Below, in pieces: positions 37,482 to 46,567 of a DNA stretch of 64,000 nucleotides. How positions within the stretch are numbered: the first letter of the stretch is position 1; every line of letters begins with the position of its first letter. Source of the DNA: Ruminococcaceae bacterium UBA5891 (GTDB taxonomy: Bacteria; Bacillota; Clostridia; Oscillospirales; Acutalibacteraceae); assembly GCA_002431945.1 (NCBI GenBank), contig DJET01000048.1:446-64445 (forward strand), read 5' to 3'. Under the pieces are notes generated by a model. The model worked only from the letters and a program-made list of their open reading frames with translations, was not told the DNA's origin and made no database searches. The translations under genes were made by a program, and so were the position numbers.

Positions 37482-40400
37482 TCAGCTTTTGTAGGATATT
37501 TCGCCTGCTTCGCCGGTCGGAGGTATTTTAAAGCTTGCCATAGCCTGCCAATAATTGCTGTTTAATACGGTAGGAACAGCGGTGCCGGTATGGTCGGAGT
37601 TATTATACACCACCTTGTAGGCGTAAAGGAAATCATTGGTTATATCCCTGTCGTCGTCGCACAAAAAAACATCGAGCTGAATATCAGAGTTTGATTTATT
37701 CGTGACGGTAATAATATACACGCCGTTTGCATAATCGGAGCTGTAATCGGGGTCATTCGAATCCATTTTCTTAAAGGACAGATTGACCGAAAAATTGTTC
37801 TGATTTGTTCCCTGCGGCGCCGTTGTTGAGAAAAGCAAAACCGAATAATTGTTTTCCCCAAGCCTTGCCGGAGCGGTGCGGTACTCGGTTTTAAAGGCGT
37901 TGGTTACGGCATTGCCCTCAGAGCTGATAACCTTTTTTATCGCTTCACCGCCGTTTGCGGCAATGTCAAGATAAATAAGGTATGCGCCGGTTTTACCGCT
38001 TACCGAGCCGAGGCAGTATTCGCCCTTGTTGCAGGGTATTTCAAAATAATATATGTTATTACCTTTGCGGTTGAATCCGGGATTTTTTATCCATTCGGTT
38101 TTAAAGACAGATTTATAATCCGAAATATCGACATCGGCAGAATATGTGTTGTCTTTAAACTTGTATACATAAGAGACTGCTGAGCCCTTTTCCTTATGCT
38201 CATATATTTCTTCAATTTCCTTAATGTCGGTTATTTTATTGTTTTCATCTCTGAAAACCTGATGAAGTGAGAAGAATGAGTTGTTGCCTGTAAAATAATC
38301 GCCCGCAAAAAAGTTAATTGAGCCTCTTTCAATAACATTAAAGTCAATGCTGTCCATCGGCATTTCGTAATTATCGTATTCCTTGCCTAAAACAACCGCT
38401 TTTTCGGCAGTTACAAGATAATCCTTGGAAATTTTAGCGTCCATAAAGTGCAGCCCGTAAACAGAAGTGGAACCATCAAGCGTATCAAGCAGCTGTTTTG
38501 ACGCCGTTTGGTAAGCCGGAGAATTTGCGGTGTATGAATGTTTTCCGTTTCCGTCAACCGTATAAATAGTTTTGAAAGCTTCGGGATCTTCAGTATCATA
38601 AGAACCGCTTACAGAGCTTATCGAGAAGTATGAAATACGTATATCTCCGTATGCTTTCTGACCATCATCTGTGGCTGTTGAATCCTCCAAGCGTGCGCCG
38701 CTTATAATATATCCCGTGTTTTTTTGCGAAACCTTAAAAGGATCCGCAGCGTCGTACCAACCGTTTTCATTTTCGTCTGCAATTCTAAGCGGGAAGTAAG
38801 ACTGATATCCGCCGATAACATTTGTCTTTGTTTCTTTTGTAATTCTTTTTTGAGTGGTCTTTTCAAAATCAAGGCTGTAATCAACCGTAATGGGATTTGA
38901 AATATTAACATTCGGTGAAGGAACGACCTTTTCCTGCACTGCAATTTCCGGAAGATTATCCGAACGGGCTTCTGCCGCAACGTGTTCAAAAATCGGTGTA
39001 AAAGTAAGCGTAGTCCCCGTTGTGTTTAAATCCTTCCACGAATTGTTTGTTGTGATATAAAAATTAGCGTTCTGACCCCAGCCACTATTTTTATTAACGT
39101 AAAGTTTATTGCCGTTATTTAACCAGTTTTCACCTGAATTATTACTGGTATTTAATGTATAAGAATAGCTGCCATACCAATTCCTGCTTCGGCTGACGCT
39201 AAGGTATTTTGTGGTTCCGTTTATTACGGTTGAGATAGTCCCGGAATAGGTGCTTGGATTTGAAAACGTCCATTTTGCGGCATTTGCTTGATTTGTTTCA
39301 TTTATTATGTTGCCGCTCGAATCGATACTCAAATAATTGTTACCGGAAGAAATTGTATACTTGGGGAGTGAAATCTTCCAACCGCCGTCATAAACAAGAT
39401 AATAATCGGTATTGTCCGCTCTTAAACATCCGTCGGCGGTAAAGGACCAATTTGTTGCGGTGTCAGCAAAAGAGCCGTTGCTCACCCCTAAATAATACTG
39501 AGAATTGTTAAAATTATAAGTGATGTTACCGGAATCGGAGTTTGAAAAATAAAAACGGGTTGCATTATCTGCCGTGGCATTTGAAAAGCTGTTGTTGCCG
39601 TCGGCCTTAAGGTAATTTCCGTTGCCGTCGGTTATAAGCTTATATTCAAGTGTAACCGCTTCCCAACCGTTATTATAACGGATATAATAATCCCTGCCGT
39701 TATTGGTATAATAGTATGAATTGCCGTCTTTTTTCCAGTTAAACGGGGTTTCGCTTACGGTAAGTCCGGAGTTAAAGCTTATATAATACGGTACGGAATT
39801 TATAAATGTATAAAACCTTATGCCGTTTGCGTCCTCTTCGGTCTGCCAAACAAGAGCGGTGTTCTCTGCGGCATTTTTAATGCTTTTTGTATCGGCAGAA
39901 AGGTAATTGTTATTGCCGTCGGTAATCAGCTTACCGATACAGGCGGCTTTCCAGCCGTTATCGTAAACCAGCCTGTATTTAACGCTCACATTGCCGAATG
40001 TGAGGGTTCTTGTAAAATATCCGTCGCTTTCAAGCGTCCATAAAATATCTTCGTCTTTTGTCGACTCGGTCAGCGCAAGACTGCCGTTTACGGTAAGATA
40101 ACAGCTCTTATCACCGATTTCGGTGCGAAATTTATACTTATCACCCGAAACGGTCACCTGCCATTTAACCGAACTGCTTTCGGAGCGCGCGTTTGCAATC
40201 TCGGCACCGCCCGTACCGTTTGTTGCCGAAAGGAAATTACCGTTGCCGTCTGAAATATAGCAGTATTGCGTAAAGGACGATATTCCCCATTCGGCGGAGC
40301 AGTTAAGATAATAGTCGATTCCGTTCACGGTTGTATAAAGCGCGTCTTGTTCATTGCGAATCCAAACCGTGCTTGCAGACTGCGATACCGTAACGCCGGA

Positions 40401-41831
40401 CAGACCGTTACGGTTTAAATAATAGGTTTCATTATTTATATAAGTGAAAAGATAACCGCTTTCGTCAAAGCTCCATTTTGAAGCGCCGCTTTTATCGGAG
40501 CTTGTAATACCGCCCTTAACCGCTTTCAGATATACGCCGCCGTCGCTTATATAAAAAGCGTTGAGATCCTCGGTGGATATTGTGTAAGTGTTTACGGTTT
40601 TCGGCATTCTTGAGCTGTCGCCGTACATACACATATACTGACCGTTCGAATCATTTATATAATAATACTCACCTGCATACTTATTTGCGGTTGTATAATA
40701 TAGGTATTGAACGTTATCGCGCGGATTAACATTTGTAAGTCCGTCGCGGCTTACAACACGGGTGTTGTTATTTTCATCAATCACTATATTTTCAATGGAA
40801 TAATACTGCGTAGGCTTAATTGTCGGAGAATTAGTCGGGTTGTACGAATCATACAAAGCAGCTATGCTTGTTAACCTGTCATGCATTTGCTTCATATCCA
40901 CACTGCCGCCGAAGCCTGCGTTATCGCCCTTTGTGCGTTGGGTTATAATTTCCTGACCCAAGGTTGTAACAATGTTTCCGTCCTTATCCTCCACGCAGCC
41001 GAAAAAGCCGAAACCGGAATACGCTTCGTTTCCTCCGGTAACGGTGCAGTTATTAACATATACGTCGTTCACCTGCGCGCCGGTTATTATATGTCCGGCA
41101 ATATAGCCTACGTATGCGGCGTGGTCGGTGTGCTTGGTCGGGTCGTGCGTTACTGTGGTTGAAGTGTTTAAATGCTCGCCAGATATATCAACATTTGTAA
41201 GATCAATCGTCATACTGTCGATATACAGGTTTTTAATTGTGGGCGTTTGCTCGGTGTTGCCGCCTTTATTGCTTACATAACCGAATAAGCCTATATCCGG
41301 CGTTGTATAGGTTGTTCCGTTAAGGCTTGTGCTGCCTACAATTTTTAAGTTTTTAAGGGTAATGTTTTCGCCGTCAAGCGTTGCCTGAAATGGCTTTTCG
41401 GCAGAGCCTATCGGAAACAGTCCGTCCGTGTAGCTTGCAAGGTTAAGGGTTTGTGAAGTATTATTGTTTGTTACGCCGCTGTCGTCATATTCAAAAACCG
41501 AAAATTCCTTCAATTCATCTATTCCGTCAAGGTCCAAATCCTTAGTACCTATGCGGAAATGGGTAGACGCCGTAATAAAATCCGATCCCTTAACAGCCGG
41601 ATTCGCCTGATAAAGCATTACCAAATTATAAAAATGAACAGGTCTTGTAATTTCGTAAGGATTTTCCGCCGTGCCGTCGCCTTTATGAAAATAACGCGTC
41701 ACCACCGAGCCGCCGTTTTCATCTAAATCGGCGGAATTAAGCTTGGCAAACCACGCAAAGGACACCGAAACGCTTGTTAAAAGCATAACCGCCGCCGTAA
41801 ATAAAGCGATAATTCTGTTTCTTTTGCTCAT
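37482..41831 (-). CDS. Giant secreted adhesin-like protein with TasA/SipW-type N-terminal signal, beta-helix-like region and lectin-like repeats
   Basis: 1449 aa from ATG 41831; the RBS AAGGAG lies inside the end of the upstream gene. The N-terminus is a basic stretch, a hydrophobic helix, then SFAWFAK. A beta-helix/GLUG-like region follows (ENPYEITRPVHFYNL, PIGSAEKPFQATLDGENITLKNLKI, GLFGYV). About 490 aa of repeated Y-Y-L...W units come next, and the C-terminal ~540 aa is unassigned. Confidence 0.6.
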   Translation of the reverse strand: MSKRNRIIALFTAAVMLLTSVSVSFAWFAKLNSADLDENGGSVVTRYFHKGDGTAENPYEITRPVHFYNLVMLYQANPAVKGSDFITASTHFRIGTKDLDLDGIDELKEFSVFEYDDSGVTNNNTSQTLNLASYTDGLFPIGSAEKPFQATLDGENITLKNLKIVGSTSLNGTTYTTPDIGLFGYVSNKGGNTEQTPTIKNLYIDSMTIDLTNVDISGEHLNTSTTVTHDPTKHTDHAAYVGYIAGHIITGAQVNDVYVNNCTVTGGNEAYSGFGFFGCVEDKDGNIVTTLGQEIITQRTKGDNAGFGGSVDMKQMHDRLTSIAALYDSYNPTNSPTIKPTQYYSIENIVIDENNNTRVVSRDGLTNVNPRDNVQYLYYTTANKYAGEYYYINDSNGQYMCMYGDSSRMPKTVNTYTISTEDLNAFYISDGGVYLKAVKGGITSSDKSGASKWSFDESGYLFTYINNETYYLNRNGLSGVTVSQSASTVWIRNEQDALYTTVNGIDYYLNCSAEWGISSFTQYCYISDGNGNFLSATNGTGGAEIANARSESSSVKWQVTVSGDKYKFRTEIGDKSCYLTVNGSLALTESTKDEDILWTLESDGYFTRTLTFGNVSVKYRLVYDNGWKAACIGKLITDGNNNYLSADTKSIKNAAENTALVWQTEEDANGIRFYTFINSVPYYISFNSGLTVSETPFNWKKDGNSYYYTNNGRDYYIRYNNGWEAVTLEYKLITDGNGNYLKADGNNSFSNATADNATRFYFSNSDSGNITYNFNNSQYYLGVSNGSFADTATNWSFTADGCLRADNTDYYLVYDGGWKISLPKYTISSGNNYLSIDSSGNIINETNQANAAKWTFSNPSTYSGTISTVINGTTKYLSVSRSRNWYGSYSYTLNTSNNSGENWLNNGNKLYVNKNSGWGQNANFYITTNNSWKDLNTTGTTLTFTPIFEHVAAEARSDNLPEIAVQEKVVPSPNVNISNPITVDYSLDFEKTTQKRITKETKTNVIGGYQSYFPLRIADENENGWYDAADPFKVSQKNTGYIISGARLEDSTATDDGQKAYGDIRISYFSISSVSGSYDTEDPEAFKTIYTVDGNGKHSYTANSPAYQTASKQLLDTLDGSTSVYGLHFMDAKISKDYLVTAEKAVVLGKEYDNYEMPMDSIDFNVIERGSINFFAGDYFTGNNSFFSLHQVFRDENNKITDIKEIEEIYEHKEKGSAVSYVYKFKDNTYSADVDISDYKSVFKTEWIKNPGFNRKGNNIYYFEIPCNKGEYCLGSVSGKTGAYLIYLDIAANGGEAIKKVISSEGNAVTNAFKTEYRTAPARLGENNYSVLLFSTTAPQGTNQNNFSVNLSFKKMDSNDPDYSSDYANGVYIITVTNKSNSDIQLDVFLCDDDRDITNDFLYAYKVVYNNSDHTGTAVPTVLNSNYWQAMASFKIPPTGEAGEISYKS
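39100..40570 (-). repeat. Degenerate in-frame protein repeats (beta-trefoil/ricin-like lectin pattern) in the giant protein
   Basis: Recurrent ~40-50-aa units such as ISDGNGNFLSAT...VKWQV, LITDGNNNYLSAD...LVWQT, LITDGNGNYLKAD..., ISSGNNYLSID...AKWTF. These alternate with YYLN / YYIS / YYLG ... W units. Boundaries are approximate. Confidence 0.45.
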
Positions 41832-41836
41832 AGCCC

Positions 41837-42577
41837 TCACTCCTTAATTACTTCAATCGAAGAAATGTCGCCTTTGTACTGCGTGGTTTCGTTTTCACCG
41901 TCAAACGCTATATCCTTACTTTGAATTACATTCGAGTAATAATCAACCAAAATATATATTGCCCCGCCCTCGTCCATAGTAAGACTGTCTGTTTCAAAAG
42001 CGGTCCGCTTTTCGGTAATGCTTCCGTCTTGTTCGGTGATAAATAAGTAATCCGTATATTTATCATCGTTTTCAAGCTCTGTTACGGCGCTTTTATAAAT
42101 TTCCTCTTCTGTTCCCGTTAAATTAAGCGAAGCGGCGCGGAATTTTACCATATCCGAAATATAGTTAAGCTTGGCATCAGCGTCGGTGCAATTGAATTTA
42201 AGACGGAATTTATCGCCGCCGCTAAGCCCCTTTACCTCTATTTTTATTATAACCGCATTTTCTTCATTTCGGCTTGTAAACACGGTATCGTATTCATTAA
42301 GCGTTGCGTCGGTACCGGTATAAAAGCTATATTTAAACTTATCGCGGTCATATTCATTTTTATAAACGGTAAAGCCTAAAACGGAAAAATCCGAATCGTC
42401 AGCCGCGGTGATCGTCATATTGCTTGCGGTTACGGCATTACCGTTTGCAAACCAACCGAGAGAATTGTTTAAAAAAACAATAATCGCAAGGAGCAGAATC
42501 ACCGAAATTGCAATAAGAGAAGCAAACTGCATATACTGTTTTCTGGTTTGCAGAAAGCCCATTATCCTCTGTGCCAC
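41837..42577 (-). CDS. TasA/camelysin-like secreted protein (minor fibre subunit candidate)
   Basis: I place the start at GTG 42577, which sits 9 nt after RBS AAAGGAG (42593-42587) and immediately after the riboswitch terminator. N-terminal TM helix, then LGWFANGNAVTASNMTITAADD, which parallels the 251-aa protein. C-terminal AFDGENETTQYKGDISSIEVI resembles the TasA-family C-terminal strand motif. Confidence 0.6.
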   Translation of the reverse strand: MAQRIMGFLQTRKQYMQFASLIAISVILLLAIIVFLNNSLGWFANGNAVTASNMTITAADDSDFSVLGFTVYKNEYDRDKFKYSFYTGTDATLNEYDTVFTSRNEENAVIIKIEVKGLSGGDKFRLKFNCTDADAKLNYISDMVKFRAASLNLTGTEEEIYKSAVTELENDDKYTDYLFITEQDGSITEKRTAFETDSLTMDEGGAIYILVDYYSNVIQSKDIAFDGENETTQYKGDISSIEVIKE

Positions 42578-42600: not shown

Positions 42601-42635
42601 ATAAAAGCCGTGCCGCATAACGAATGCGGCACGGC
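42601..42635 (-). terminator. Intrinsic terminator (expression platform of minus-strand riboswitch)
   Basis: The minus strand reads GCCGUGCCGCAU-UCGUU-AUGCGGCACGGC-UUUUAU, a 12-bp GC-rich stem plus a U-tract. Its 5' GCC overlaps the aptamer 3' end. Confidence 0.8.
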
Positions 42636-42706
42636 AACTGGCTGACTTAAACTAAAGTCCCTATAGCTTTGCGTCACCGGATTGCTCCGGCTTTGCTTTT
42701 TCTTTT
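42633..42706 (-). promoter_or_regulatory. c-di-GMP-I (GEMM-I)-like riboswitch aptamer, copy A
   Basis: The minus strand reads AAAAGCAAAG-CCGGA-GCAA-UCCGG-UGACGCAAAGCUAUAGGGAC...GUCAGCCAGUUGCC. It has a GNRA-capped hairpin, the ACGCAAAGC junction and a GGGAC/GUC helix in the GEMM-I order. Confidence 0.75.
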
Positions 42707-42716
42707 TTTCTTATAT

Positions 42717-42745
42717 ATTATATAGCCCTATATTGTAAAAGTCAA
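42717..42745 (-). promoter_or_regulatory. Sigma-A consensus promoter (minus strand)
   Basis: On the minus strand: TTGACT (42745-42740), a 17-nt spacer, then TATAAT (42722-42717). Confidence 0.7.
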
Positions 42746-42797
42746 CTTTTTTTTACGAAAAAAAACCGCCCAGATTTTCAAAAAACTTAAAAATAAC

Positions 42798-42826
42798 TTG
42801 ACACGAAAAAAAACAGTGTATATAAT
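42798..42826 (+). promoter_or_regulatory. Sigma-A consensus promoter
   Basis: TTGACA (42798-42803), a 17-nt spacer, then TATAAT (42821-42826). Confidence 0.75.
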
Positions 42827-42835
42827 GTAAAAGAT

Positions 42836-42910
42836 GATTATTTTGGGTAAAATCGGAGCAATCCGATGACACAAAGCTATAGGGTCCATCAAGTGGATTG
42901 CCAGCTGCAA
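42836..42910 (+). promoter_or_regulatory. c-di-GMP-I (GEMM-I)-like riboswitch aptamer, copy B
   Basis: UUGGGUAAA-AUCGGA-GCAA-UCCGAU-GACACAAAGCUAUAGGGUCC-AUCAAGU-GGAUUGCCAGCUGCAA. The architecture matches copies A and C, and the GNRA hairpin stem differs by compensatory changes. Confidence 0.75.
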
Positions 42911-42948
42911 TTTTCAACGGGTCTAACGTTGTTTATTGCAGTTTTTTT
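42903..42948 (+). terminator. Intrinsic terminator (expression platform of copy B)
   Basis: CUGCAAU (42905-42911) pairs with AUUGCAG (42935-42941). There is an inner CAACG/CGUUG helix, followed by U7 (42942-48). The 5' arm overlaps the aptamer 3' strand. Confidence 0.8.
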
Positions 42949-42972
42949 ATATTCGGGTTTTGGGGTGATAAT

Positions 42973-43812
42973 ATGACTGATGAAAAAAATACGGTAAATG
43001 AAGAGGCGGCGGAAAACAAATCCCCTGTCGACTATGTTGATATGGCGGTTCATTCGGGCGTGGCGCCGCTTGAGACGCGTTATTGCGGAATATACGACTG
43101 CTATTCAAAATCCCCCGTTGCTTACAGAAGCTTTACCTATATAAACAGCGTGCTTGAAGGGGTTATACCGCCAGAAAAATATTGCTTCGCCGCAGACAGC
43201 ACAGATACCGGCATAAGGCTTGCAAAATATAATATTATAAATGCAATAAATATGATAAAGCGTCTTGAAGACGCCGGCAGGCATATCAGATTTGTAACGG
43301 CGCGCTGCCCTGCCCTGCTAGCCGAAAGGGACGGTTTATATGAATTTGTGCAGTCGCTTATGAAGCAGTGCGATTTTCACGAGCCCGAAAAGCTTTGTCT
43401 TGAATTTCCGCAATCCTTGCTTTACGGGGAAAAAGAAAAGGTGCGTATAGGTATTCTTAATATGAAGCTGCTTAAGGTTATGACTATGATGTCCGGCTGC
43501 GGTGCGGACGACTGCCCGATAACCCCCTTAATGGATATTCCCGTAGACAGCGTGCTTTTATCGCCCGAAATTACGGCGCTTACCGATTCGCGCGGCAGAT
43601 CGTCGCATATATCCTCTTTTATCTCATTTATAAAGGATATGGATATTAAGGTCTACGCCGACGGAGTTAATAACGACGACCAGATAACCTCGCTTTTACG
43701 GCTTGACTGTTCGGGATATGCGCCCTCCTCAGGGTATACGGGAGCAGCCGTTCACGGCAGACTGCGTATGACCGGCGAAGAAGCAATTTCCCAAAAGGAG
43801 GAAACCGACTGA
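42973..43812 (+). CDS. Degenerate EAL-domain protein (catalytically inactive; possible c-di-GMP receptor)
   Basis: 279 aa from ATG 42973, after RBS GGGGTG. The EAL-domain order is retained but key residues are replaced: YRS for EAL, LCLEFPQ for xxEITE, MSGCGADDC for DDFGTGYSS, YADGVN for AEGVE, CSGY for QGY. The stop overlaps the next start (TGATG). Confidence 0.6.
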   Translation: MTDEKNTVNEEAAENKSPVDYVDMAVHSGVAPLETRYCGIYDCYSKSPVAYRSFTYINSVLEGVIPPEKYCFAADSTDTGIRLAKYNIINAINMIKRLEDAGRHIRFVTARCPALLAERDGLYEFVQSLMKQCDFHEPEKLCLEFPQSLLYGEKEKVRIGILNMKLLKVMTMMSGCGADDCPITPLMDIPVDSVLLSPEITALTDSRGRSSHISSFISFIKDMDIKVYADGVNNDDQITSLLRLDCSGYAPSSGYTGAAVHGRLRMTGEEAISQKEETD

Positions 43813-44561
43813 TGGCAAGGCAACATATAGTTGAATCGGTTGTGGAAAGAACCGCAAACGAGGTAAAGCGTTACCGCCTTTATATGCGGATAATTCCGAT
43901 AGGCGCCGCCGTTCTTTCGCTCATACTGATAATAGGCTACGTTATTTCCGTGCTTTATATGAAGTTCGGCGCATTTACCGTAATGGTAAACAAGTTCGAT
44001 AACCTTGATTACGCGCTTACCCTCTCCCCAAGCTCGGATTTCAACACCAAAACCTCGCGCCTTAATGCAGAGATCGATAAGGAAATAACCAATATAGACG
44101 GAAAAACCCTGCCCAACTATCTTGATAACGTAGACGGCGAGCACAACGGCGAAAATTATGTTGCATATACCTTTTACTGCCGTAACGAGGGCAAGCACAG
44201 AATAACTTATACCTACGATCTGTACATCGCCAATATGACCTATGAAATTGAAAAGGCGGTCAGGGTAAGGCTTTATGTAGACGGCGAGGCTACCGACTAC
44301 GCCTATGCCAGAACAGACGGCGTTAAGGGGCCCGAACCCGGAACAACGCAGTTTCAAACCGGCAATACGATAGTAAAAAAGGAAATAGCTCATTTCAAGC
44401 CCGGCGACGTTACCAAATATACGGTTGTAATTTGGCTTGAGGGCAACGACCCCGACTGCGTGGATAAAATTATAGGCGGAAAATTCAAGGTTGATATGGC
44501 GCTTACCGTTATAAAGGACGAGGAAGAAAAGGAACAGGCCAAGGCAAAAGAGCTTATTTAA
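43812..44561 (+). CDS. TasA-like membrane-anchored/secreted protein
   Basis: 249-aa ORF. It has a basic N-terminus, a TM helix, then KFGAFTVMVNKFDN. C-terminal YTVVIWLEGNDPDCVDKIIGGKFKVDMALTVI parallels the FDGEN...-type motif of the other two small proteins. Confidence 0.5.
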   Translation: MARQHIVESVVERTANEVKRYRLYMRIIPIGAAVLSLILIIGYVISVLYMKFGAFTVMVNKFDNLDYALTLSPSSDFNTKTSRLNAEIDKEITNIDGKTLPNYLDNVDGEHNGENYVAYTFYCRNEGKHRITYTYDLYIANMTYEIEKAVRVRLYVDGEATDYAYARTDGVKGPEPGTTQFQTGNTIVKKEIAHFKPGDVTKYTVVIWLEGNDPDCVDKIIGGKFKVDMALTVIKDEEEKEQAKAKELI

Positions 44562-44590
44562 AAAAATCAGCCGAAAAATTCAAAAAATAC

Positions 44591-44619
44591 TTGACAAGTG
44601 AAAAAGCAATTTGTATAAT
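44591..44619 (+). promoter_or_regulatory. Sigma-A consensus promoter
   Basis: TTGACA (44591-44596), a 17-nt spacer, then TATAAT (44614-44619). Confidence 0.75.
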
Positions 44620-44631
44620 AAATTAGCAAAA

Positions 44632-44704
44632 TAAGTTTGGTAAAACCGTTGTAAAGCGGCGACACAAAGCTATAGGGTCCATAAAATGGATTGCCAGCTG
44701 CAAC
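44632..44704 (+). promoter_or_regulatory. c-di-GMP-I (GEMM-I)-like riboswitch aptamer, copy C
   Basis: UUUGGUAAAA-CCGUU-GUAA-AGCGG-CGACACAAAGCUAUAGGGUCC-AUAAAAU-GGAUUGCCAGCUGCAAC. The 3' half is almost identical to copy B. The GNRA hairpin is entirely different but still base-paired. Confidence 0.75.
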
Positions 44705-44741
44705 CGATAACAGTTCTTCTGTTATTTGTTGCAGCTTTTTT
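44696..44741 (+). terminator. Intrinsic terminator (expression platform of copy C)
   Basis: AGCUGCAAC (44696-44704) pairs with GUUGCAGCU (44728-44736). There is an inner GAUAACAG/CUGUUAU helix, then UUUUUUGUUU. The 5' arm uses the aptamer AGCU and CAA nucleotides. Confidence 0.8.
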
Positions 44742-44818
44742 GTTTGTCTTTAATTGCCGTCGGTTGTGGCGACTTCCGGCGGCAATGAAATAAAAATTTT
44801 ATAAAGGGGAAAACCATA

Positions 44819-45574
44819 ATGAAAAAAATGAAAAAACTCTTTCCTGCCCTTTGCCTGCTGCTGGTTTCGGCAACACTTCTGGGCACCTCCACCTACGCTT
44901 GGTTCTCGATGAACAAGAACGTGCATGCAAACAATATGCAAATCACCGCAAAAGCAGACACAACTTATCTGTTGATTAGTGCCGATAAAAACACTGCCGC
45001 AGGAATTCAAGAAGATAAAAAGATTGAAGTAAGTTTAGGTGAAAATAAAAATCTTTACCCTGCTGCACTTAAAACCAACACCAATCCGTTCACGGACGCA
45101 GACGACAACTGGTGGTATGCTTCGGCAAGCACAAGCGACAAATCTACAAAGGACGATGAAACAGTAGTAACCTTTGGCGAGGCAAAATCTAAAAAGCCTA
45201 CCGATGCAGAAGCTAAAGAAGACGCCACAACATTCACTGAGCGCGTACTTAAAAAGACCGTTTATCTAACTCTTGCAAAAGGCTCTGTAAATAAAGGCAA
45301 GTTAACGGTTAAGGCTACTGATTTTACAGACAGTATTGGTTCCGCCAATGCTACAAAGCTTGTGGTTGCAACTGCGACTAAGGCTCTCTACTTTGACGGA
45401 AATAATGCCGCAACTGCACAGGAACTCGTAGCCGACGGCGGAATGAGCGATAGTGAAGTTATCACTGTTAATATATATATGTATTTCGACGGTGAAAACG
45501 CTGATGTTTACACCGATAACATCACAGCACTCACTAGTGCATCAGCAAACATTCACTTTGCAATTGCAGACTGA
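44819..45574 (+). CDS. TasA/camelysin-like secreted protein (major fibre subunit candidate)
   Basis: 251-aa ORF after RBS AAGGGG. The signal LLLVSATLLGTSTYAWFSMNKN resembles B. subtilis TasA GGGTWAAFND. C-terminal VNIYMYFDGENADVYTDN...ANIHFAIAD resembles the TasA-family terminal strands. It appears to be a monocistronic unit between a riboswitch and a hairpin. Confidence 0.65.
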   Translation: MKKMKKLFPALCLLLVSATLLGTSTYAWFSMNKNVHANNMQITAKADTTYLLISADKNTAAGIQEDKKIEVSLGENKNLYPAALKTNTNPFTDADDNWWYASASTSDKSTKDDETVVTFGEAKSKKPTDAEAKEDATTFTERVLKKTVYLTLAKGSVNKGKLTVKATDFTDSIGSANATKLVVATATKALYFDGNNAATAQELVADGGMSDSEVITVNIYMYFDGENADVYTDNITALTSASANIHFAIAD

Positions 45575-45764: not shown

Positions 45765-45793
45765 TTGACAGCTTTCGCTTAAACTGCTATAAT
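45765..45793 (+). promoter_or_regulatory. Sigma-A consensus promoter with extended -10
   Basis: TTGACA (45765-45770), a 17-nt spacer ending in TGc, then TATAAT (45788-45793). Confidence 0.75.
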
Positions 45794-45850: not shown

Positions 45851-46567
45851 ATGGCAGGAAAAAAAAGTGCTGAAAAGGCAATTAAAATTGTTGTAAATAC
45901 TTTGGTTTGGCTTTTCGTTGTTTTTGCAATCGTTATAACGGTTTTGGCTTTCGCCGCCCAGTCCGATCCGGACGGGGTTCCGGCTATCGGTGGCAAGTGC
46001 ATTTTAACCGTTCAGTCCGATTCAATGAAGGGCGTTTTTAACAAGGGCGATATTATCATTGCAGAAAAGCTTAGCGATAAAGAAAAAAGCGAGCTTGCGG
46101 TAAAGGATATTATCAGCTTTAAAACCGACCTTAACGGCGACGGCGTAAAGGAAATAAACTCCCACCGCATTACCGAGGTTATAAAAGGCGAAAACGGCGA
46201 AATTTCTTATAAAACAATGGGTGATAACACACTCGGCGAGGATACCGGAGAGGTTGCCGCCGCCGATGTTATAGGCAAATACAACGGCACGCGCATTAAG
46301 GGACTCGGCGGCTTTCTTGATTTTCTTCAGAAGCCTAAGGGCTTTTTGGTAGTTGTTGTTATTCCGTTAATTCTTTTCTTTGTGTTTGAGCTTGCAAACT
46401 TTATTAAAACGTTTATTCAGGTTAAAAACGGCGATAAAAAGCAGATTACCGCCGAGGACGAGGCGCTCATTCGCAAACAGGCTGTTGAAGAATATCTGCG
46501 CCAGCAAAAGGCGGCGGCAGACAGTAACGGGGAAAATTCCTCTGACGCTACCGACATTGATAAATAG
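45851..46567 (+). CDS. sipW: Signal peptidase I, archaeal/ER-type (SipW-like), paralog 1
   Basis: 238-aa ORF. N-terminal TM, catalytic-Ser segment VQSDSMKG, His segment INSHRITEV, MGDNTLGED box, a C-terminal TM and an acidic/basic tail. Confidence 0.8.
   Translation: MAGKKSAEKAIKIVVNTLVWLFVVFAIVITVLAFAAQSDPDGVPAIGGKCILTVQSDSMKGVFNKGDIIIAEKLSDKEKSELAVKDIISFKTDLNGDGVKEINSHRITEVIKGENGEISYKTMGDNTLGEDTGEVAAADVIGKYNGTRIKGLGGFLDFLQKPKGFLVVVVIPLILFFVFELANFIKTFIQVKNGDKKQITAEDEALIRKQAVEEYLRQQKAAADSNGENSSDATDIDK

Follow-up and report, generated by a model that had tools for sequence, protein, structure and literature searches.

Riboswitches of the c-di-GMP-I class (GEMM-I), which bind c-di-GMP (cyclic diguanosine monophosphate), are among the commonest riboswitch classes. 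Two of the closest described examples come from Bacillus thuringiensis: Bc2, upstream of the collagen-adhesion gene cap, was shown experimentally to be an ON switch (PMC4933901), and Bc3-5, three aptamers in tandem, lies upstream of cspABCDE, an operon for cell-surface proteins (PMC4759541). We analyzed a stretch of 64,000 nucleotides (the window) from Ruminococcaceae bacterium UBA5891 (GenBank assembly GCA_002431945.1, contig DJET01000048.1, positions 446 to 64,445 of the forward strand), which carries three elements of this class, copies A, B and C. We consider it probable, at about 0.78, that they are class-I c-di-GMP riboswitches acting on termination as ON switches, each placed in the 5' leader of a unit that has a promoter to itself (units A, B and C). 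They share with Bc2 and Bc3-5 the class, a Firmicutes host, the terminator-based layout and the apparent control of surface or adhesion proteins. Unlike Bc3-5, which forms one serial leader, the window has three separate promoters, two of them divergent. The targets in the window are not LPXTG proteins. Serial tandems comparable to Bc3-5 or longer occur in relatives of the locus, with four aptamers in one of them (L071).

With Vc2 of Vibrio cholerae, the prototype of the Rfam family RF01051, the three copies have in common the two-hairpin aptamer, a GNRA-capped P2, the GACRCAAAG junction and P3, and copies B and C also share G20, A47 and C92 (Vc2 numbering is used throughout). They differ from it in their short P3, in having no supported P1, in the U-rich 5' linker of B and C, and in the A20 of copy A. 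The pilM riboswitch of Geobacter metallireducens, a GEMM-Ib element that senses cyclic GMP-AMP (cGAMP), is a transcriptional ON switch of a pilus operon in which aptamer and terminator are mutually exclusive; in the Cd1 OFF switch the two coexist (PMC9262584). The layout of copies B and C is mutually exclusive, like that of pilM, and copy A has the A at position 20 in common with pilM. Unlike pilM, however, B and C carry G20, the host is a gut bacterium of the Clostridium class, and no cGAMP synthase was seen in the 64-kb window.

The genes under control recall sipW-tasA of Bacillus subtilis and sipW-bsaA-bsaB-bsaC of Clostridium perfringens, in which SipW genes likewise stand beside genes for secreted, beta-rich proteins of about 250 amino acids (PMC7395162, PMC11580942). 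In TasA and BsaA, the segment right after the signal helix (GTxxA/xF...) is the donor strand (PMC11580942), and the subunits encoded in the window also have a conserved segment directly after the signal helix. Unlike these operons, the window adds a degenerate EAL protein, an McrB-like ATPase, a DUF2357 protein, a second SipW and riboswitch control, features that we did not find described in the literature for known sipW operons. Nor did we find a description of a riboswitch-controlled SipW locus, and SipW and McrB were mentioned together only once, as an Escherichia coli strain genotype.

Three class-I aptamers and their relatives

The whole window was scanned against 4227 Rfam families. RF01051, whose gathering score is 35, matched at three sites, each time over model positions 1-87 of 87: copy A at 42630-42707 on the minus strand (60.2 bits, E = 2.8e-9), copy B at 42836-42912 on the plus strand (50.3 bits, E = 7.2e-7) and copy C at 44629-44705 on the plus strand (49.5 bits, E = 1.1e-6). 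These were the only sites in the window to reach the gathering score of any family. A permissive scan of the window disclosed no further riboswitch, and RF01786 (c-di-GMP-II) was not matched in either scan. Sub-threshold matches to plant microRNA precursors (MIR2646, MIR8007 and MIR2655) at 42643-42895 in the permissive scan were set aside as artefacts, since copies A and B, placed back to back on opposite strands, make an imperfect palindrome of about 250 nucleotides. The P2 loops of A, B and C are GCAA, GCAA and GUAA, all GNRA tetraloops; in c-di-GMP-I riboswitches the GNRA tetraloop on P2 docks into P3.

Each aptamer follows a promoter at the same distance. Unit A has TTGACT-17-TATAAT at 42717-42745 (minus strand), and units B and C have TTGACA-17-TATAAT at 42798-42826 and 44591-44619, respectively (plus strand). 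An earlier note, made from the letters of this DNA alone, had proposed three GEMM-I riboswitches, one per transcription unit. The scores given above bear out this identity: the note had named failure to exceed the RF01051 gathering score as a refutation, and all three sites exceed it. The motifs that it described are all present where it placed them, and each aptamer does have a promoter and a terminator of its own. The promoters, which it called consensus promoters, match the sigma-70 hexamers at 12/12 positions in B and C and at 11/12 in A. It overstated the case in holding that the P2 stems share no sequence, as A and B have CGGA-GCAA-UCCG in common, and that all of them pair perfectly, as that of copy C has a U.G wobble and, at the base, an A.C mismatch. 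It was right in calling the 3' halves of B and C almost identical (41 of 45 positions).

The same note had invoked covariation, for which three sequences offer little: within the window only three pairs covary. With 3' halves so much alike, B and C do not count as separate witnesses, and independent support was drawn from related loci. Eighty loci with relatives of the 251-amino-acid protein encoded by unit C were gathered from named genomes, and a covariance model built on the three window copies was run on them. It recovered 82 further aptamers in 60 loci, giving a set of 85 sequences. On the alignment of this set, which was fitted to the model and so favours the structure somewhat, 94.1% of the cells were standard pairs, as against 25-38% when the partners were slid. 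Changes on both sides were found in 14 of 19 pairs (238 cells), and none of 500 shuffles reached the observed covariation score. The claim of covariation thus holds on 85 sequences. The Rfam model itself confirmed all 26 family aptamers in the 11 related loci on which it was tested. These findings support the view that the three elements are ordinary class-I (GEMM-I) c-di-GMP riboswitches, which would bind this ligand.

The related loci come from gut and rumen Clostridia. The first recognizable gene 3' of the aptamer (n = 82) was EAL-like in 58 cases, TM249 (the second gene of unit B) in nine, SipW in four, and a subunit gene or a gene of the unit A type in three each. The site of copy B is the orthologous position of the 58. 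Two to four aptamers follow one another in a single leader in L042, L070, L030, L050, L029 and L071. Those of L071 (3799-4324, four aptamers), L030 (4669-5093), L050 (3665-3894) and L042 (3966-4171) all exceed the Rfam gathering score.

Pocket bases and the ligand of copy A

The bases that read the ligand were located from the consensus lines of the variant models RF03168 and RF03167. Position 20 was taken as the unpaired base directly 5' of the GC/GU pair, A47 as the first A following GACRC, and C92 as the first C following UG. In the two plus-strand copies, this yields G20 at 42846, A47 at 42873 and G91/C92 at 42907/42908 (copy B), and G20 at 44639, A47 at 44666 and G91/C92 at 44700/44701 (copy C). 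On the minus strand, copy A has A20 at 42697, A47 at 42670 and G91/C92 at 42635/42634. Copies B and C are thus canonical at positions 20, 47 and 92 (G/A/C), and copy A is a natural G20A variant (A/A/C). Position 20 is also an A in the orthologue of copy A in the related locus L061. G20 reads G-alpha via the Watson-Crick edge, and C92 pairs with G-beta (PMC6140456, PMC5888326).

We considered whether the copies belong to a described variant type. In the permissive scan, RF03168 (UAU) and RF03167 (GGC) came out top by E-value for copies A and B, respectively. Copy A scored 56.1 with RF03168, below the gathering score of 65.9, and lacks the U20/A47/U92 combination; copy B scored 44.2 with RF03167, below the gathering score of 59, and does not match G20/G47/C92. 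Both assignments were rejected.

A further possibility is that copy A is of the GEMM-Ib type and senses 3',3'-cGAMP or both dinucleotides, in which case the signal for unit A would differ from that for units B and C or add to it. The A20 of copy A and of its L061 orthologue is what such an aptamer would carry: the G20A mutant of Vc2 is bispecific and binds the two ligands about equally (53 nM for c-di-GMP and 120 nM for cGAMP), and the natural A20 aptamers of Geobacter and Clostridium beijerinckii bind cGAMP (PMC6140456). Yet A20 by itself is not sufficient for cGAMP selectivity (PMC6140456), and members with A20 fall within RF01051 as well. To this is added the distribution of the two bases in the related loci: at one and the same orthologous site ahead of the EAL operon, seven aptamers have A20 and 50 have G20, which argues for one shared ligand and for the A20 copies of this clade still answering c-di-GMP. 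Furthermore, the window contains a single intact GGDEF cyclase, whose residues for reading guanine are the canonical N...D (INDVNGHDIGDE; read by eye), and the lack of a visible cGAMP synthase in the window, mentioned above, points the same way. We therefore regard a cGAMP response of copy A as unlikely and prefer c-di-GMP as the ligand of all three copies.

Terminators and the direction of switching

In copy A, a 12-base-pair stem (GCCGUGCCGCAU/AUGCGGCACGGC) followed by UUUUAU forms a terminator at 42601-42635 on the minus strand (stem 42635-42607), and its 5' arm begins exactly at G91. The terminators of B and C, both on the plus strand, are AGCUGCAAU...AUUGCAGUU with a U-run at 42903-42948 (stem 42903-42943) and AGCUGCAAC...GUUGCAGCU with U6 at 44696-44741 (stem 44696-44736). 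Their 5' arms, AGCUGCAAU and AGCUGCAAC, consist of the four basal nucleotides of P3, G91, C92 and three more bases. In the free ensemble, the terminator formed with a probability of 0.99-1.0, and C92 of unconstrained B and C was paired downstream with a probability of 1.0. Enforcing the aptamer together with its pocket cost 5.5 kcal/mol in A, 9.9 in B and 11.4 in C, and dissolved the terminator stems of B and C. Since the ligand-bound aptamer and the terminator of B and C both need this strand of P3, G91 and C92, they exclude each other, and B and C are predicted to be ON switches.

Both designs, that of B and C and that of A, recur across the related genomes. C92 pairs with a downstream base in 76 of 83 family aptamers, and at least 55 of these stems are followed by a U-tract. 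Of the stems with a U-tract, 41 have a 5' arm that begins within the P3 base (37 of them at position 1 or 2), 13 have one that begins at G91, and in a single stem it begins at C92. The stem of terminator A is kept in the L061 orthologue through compensatory changes. For copy A, no anti-terminator pairing was found, either by eye or in the ensemble, in which the terminator dominates.

In the mechanism that we propose, a strong intrinsic terminator would form when the ligand is lacking, and the unit would be off. Binding of c-di-GMP would lock basal P3, G91 and C92, which form the aptamer's 3' strand. This strand doubles as the 5' arm of the terminator, so that RNA polymerase would then read through. 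High c-di-GMP would be expected to co-induce units A, B and C.

Several observations weigh against this proposal. Copy A carries A20 instead of G20, the overlap of its terminator with the aptamer is limited to G91-C93, and when its pocket is enforced it keeps a 10-base-pair stem, displaced from the U-run. Because this stem survives, the dynamic range of copy A may be small; the ON logic is likely to apply to it too, with a switch that may be weaker. In B and C, positions 17-19 read UUG and UUU, a U-rich linker in place of the A residues of the family consensus, which contact the ligand in solved structures (PMC5888326). The flanks of the aptamers lend no support to a closing P1 helix: anti-diagonal pairing over 83 aptamers amounted to 3.66 base pairs, compared with 3.74 +/- 0.14 expected by chance. 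Finally, reasoning from minimum free energy (MFE) structures leaves out co-transcriptional kinetics. In favour of ON switches that answer c-di-GMP, the targets fit an output of sessile lifestyle, genes for a GGDEF-EAL and a GGDEF protein adjoin the regulated module, and Bc2, with its adhesin gene, offers a direct precedent.

The opposite direction, in which c-di-GMP would promote termination and the fibre genes would be on at low c-di-GMP, appeared very improbable. It could draw on copy A, in whose MFE structure the full terminator coexists with the two aptamer hairpins, a layout also seen in the Cd1 OFF switch. Against it, no alternative pairing that could act as an anti-terminator came to light, and in ligand-free RNA the terminator already prevails (probability 0.99-1.0). 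In B and C, moreover, the terminator uses the P3 base and C92, so that its coexistence with the aptamer is impossible, and most of the 83 relatives have the same layout.

The element at the site of copy C in L061 has diverged and falls below the RF01051 gathering score, while copy C of the window resembles copy B instead. Copy C seems best explained as a recent duplication of B or a gene conversion from it. That all these elements are copies of a repeated intergenic sequence and not functional riboswitches, with C a decaying duplicate, would suit the near-identity of the B and C 3' halves and the degenerate L061 orthologue, but we give it almost no credence in view of the strong compensatory covariation across 85 copies, the location ahead of the same operon, fixed in 58 cases, and the consensus promoter, pocket bases and terminator kept by each window copy.

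Regulated genes and the conserved module

The earlier note had described all three transcripts as fibre or adhesin transcripts. This is correct only in part, since the products of unit B are a degenerate EAL protein and a membrane protein of about 250 amino acids, and not a fibre. This EAL-only protein (42973-43812, plus strand; 279 amino acids; PF00563, 64.5 bits) was aligned to PDB 5yrp, from which its motifs were read: AYR replaces EAL, EFPQ replaces ExxE, MSGC replaces DDFG, L replaces K and DGVN replaces EGVE. The loss of the catalytic motifs is common to 49 orthologues, and a BLASTP comparison with the active EAL domain in a neighbour of 771 amino acids gave no match. We infer that the domain is inactive and may act as a c-di-GMP receptor. 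The second gene of unit B encodes TM249 (43812-44561, plus strand), a membrane-anchored beta-sandwich protein of 249 amino acids; among the genes that accompany the aptamer in related loci, it is the most widespread. Its start overlaps the stop of the EAL gene (TGATG). This overlap and the motif loss in 49 orthologues suggest that the two proteins are a pair, a cytoplasmic c-di-GMP receptor with its membrane partner.

Unit C carries the gene for sub251 (44819-45574, plus strand), a putative major fibre subunit of 251 amino acids in which a helix is followed by GTSTYAWFSMN; this N-terminus is near-invariant in the sub251 family. A hairpin of 10-11 base pairs (UUGCCGUCGG...CCGGCGGCAA) with no U-tract occupies 44757-44788, past terminator C and ahead of the sub251 ribosome-binding site. 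It is partly conserved in L061 and could be a stabilizer of the mRNA 5' end or a processing site.

The first gene of unit A (41837-42577, minus strand) has a GTG start 9 nucleotides past AAAGGAG and encodes a protein of about 246 amino acids that has a helix at the N-terminus and a GWFA motif. The protein belongs to no Pfam or NCBIfam family; by hhalign, the N-termini of this protein and of sub251 are related with a probability of 87%. The second gene (37482-41840, minus strand) encodes a 1452-amino-acid protein with an AWFA N-terminal motif, several repeats of about 70 amino acids of the DGNGNYL... type and a fascin-like (beta-trefoil) domain (PF06268, 24.2 bits; cut-off 23.1). It is a candidate adhesin, as its beta-trefoil region would fit carbohydrate or surface binding. 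Orthologues of its gene stand after aptamers in L061, L011, L058, L028 and L010.

The fibre label is qualified by comparison with known families. Neither the TasA/camelysin nor the SipW-substrate profiles of Pfam and NCBIfam matched sub251, p241, the N-terminus of the 1452-amino-acid protein (p1452) or TM249, with E-values considered up to 10. For the predicted structure of sub251 (mean predicted local distance difference test, pLDDT, 84), the best PDB match had E = 7e-3 with a template-modelling (TM) score of at most 0.3, which is not significant, and TasA was not in the list. Membership of sub251 in the TasA/camelysin family is thus unsupported by profiles or by fold. The model of TM249 (pLDDT 72) gave weak beta-sandwich matches, among which the TasA fibre 8aur was at rank 10 (E = 8e-4, TM score 0.3).

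Downstream of unit C lie two genes for SipW-type signal peptidases, at 45851-46567 and 49656-50294 (TIGR02228, 64.6 and 92.5 bits, respectively; cut-off 51.85). Between them are genes for a membrane-anchored McrB-like AAA+ protein (46651-48237) and a DUF2357 protein (48371-49669). The promoter of this SipW operon (45765-45793) matches the consensus at 12/12, has an extended -10 TG and is not followed by an aptamer in the window genome; in four related loci (L050, L067, L063 and L040), a GEMM-I aptamer stands directly ahead of SipW-McrB-DUF2357. More than 40 genomes have the genes in one collinear order: EAL-like, TM249, sub251, SipW, McrB-like, DUF2357, SipW. Within this module, conservation is highest for the McrB-like protein, with 57-88% identity where the subunits have 30-40%, and this protein matches the PADLOC defence candidate PDC-M26A (E = 6e-35). 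We considered the possibility that it and the DUF2357 protein are an inserted defence island. As the simplest reading this was rejected, since the pair is collinear with SipW in more than 40 loci and has its own GEMM-I aptamer in four. The McrB-like protein may therefore be listed as a defence candidate while being in fact part of the module.

Directly downstream of the module, at 50630-54352, are genes for a GGDEF-EAL protein, whose EAL motifs are intact and whose GGDEF domain is weak, and for a GGDEF protein with an intact GGDEF motif. A GGDEF-EAL gene is also adjacent to the module in L061 and several other loci. Together, the two genes would provide a local source and sink of c-di-GMP beside the riboswitch-controlled genes.

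Taken as RNA elements, the three riboswitches are a routine finding that any Rfam-based annotation would make, and the conserved module that they regulate is of more interest. We tentatively propose, while regarding it as somewhat doubtful, that they mark a surface-fibre system, undescribed so far and conserved widely among the Clostridia of gut and rumen, which would be under dual c-di-GMP control. Its subunits, with a helix and an xWF(S/A) motif, would presumably be processed by the two SipW-type peptidases, and the membrane-anchored McrB-like AAA+ protein and its DUF2357 partner may help in assembly. Each locus would have one to four GEMM-I ON switches for control of transcription, and post-translational control would fall to the degenerate EAL receptor coupled to the membrane protein. 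Copy A, with its A20, would give the adhesin unit another ligand threshold or specificity.

The aptamers supply a ligand-level label, c-di-GMP-induced and probably sessile or adhesive, for a seven-gene module without annotated function that is conserved in uncultured Clostridia of the Oscillospiraceae/Ruminococcaceae type from human gut and rumen. Their divergent, serial and tandem arrangements, together with orthologous sites that carry G20 in some relatives and A20 in others, would make these loci a natural series for the setting of c-di-GMP thresholds.

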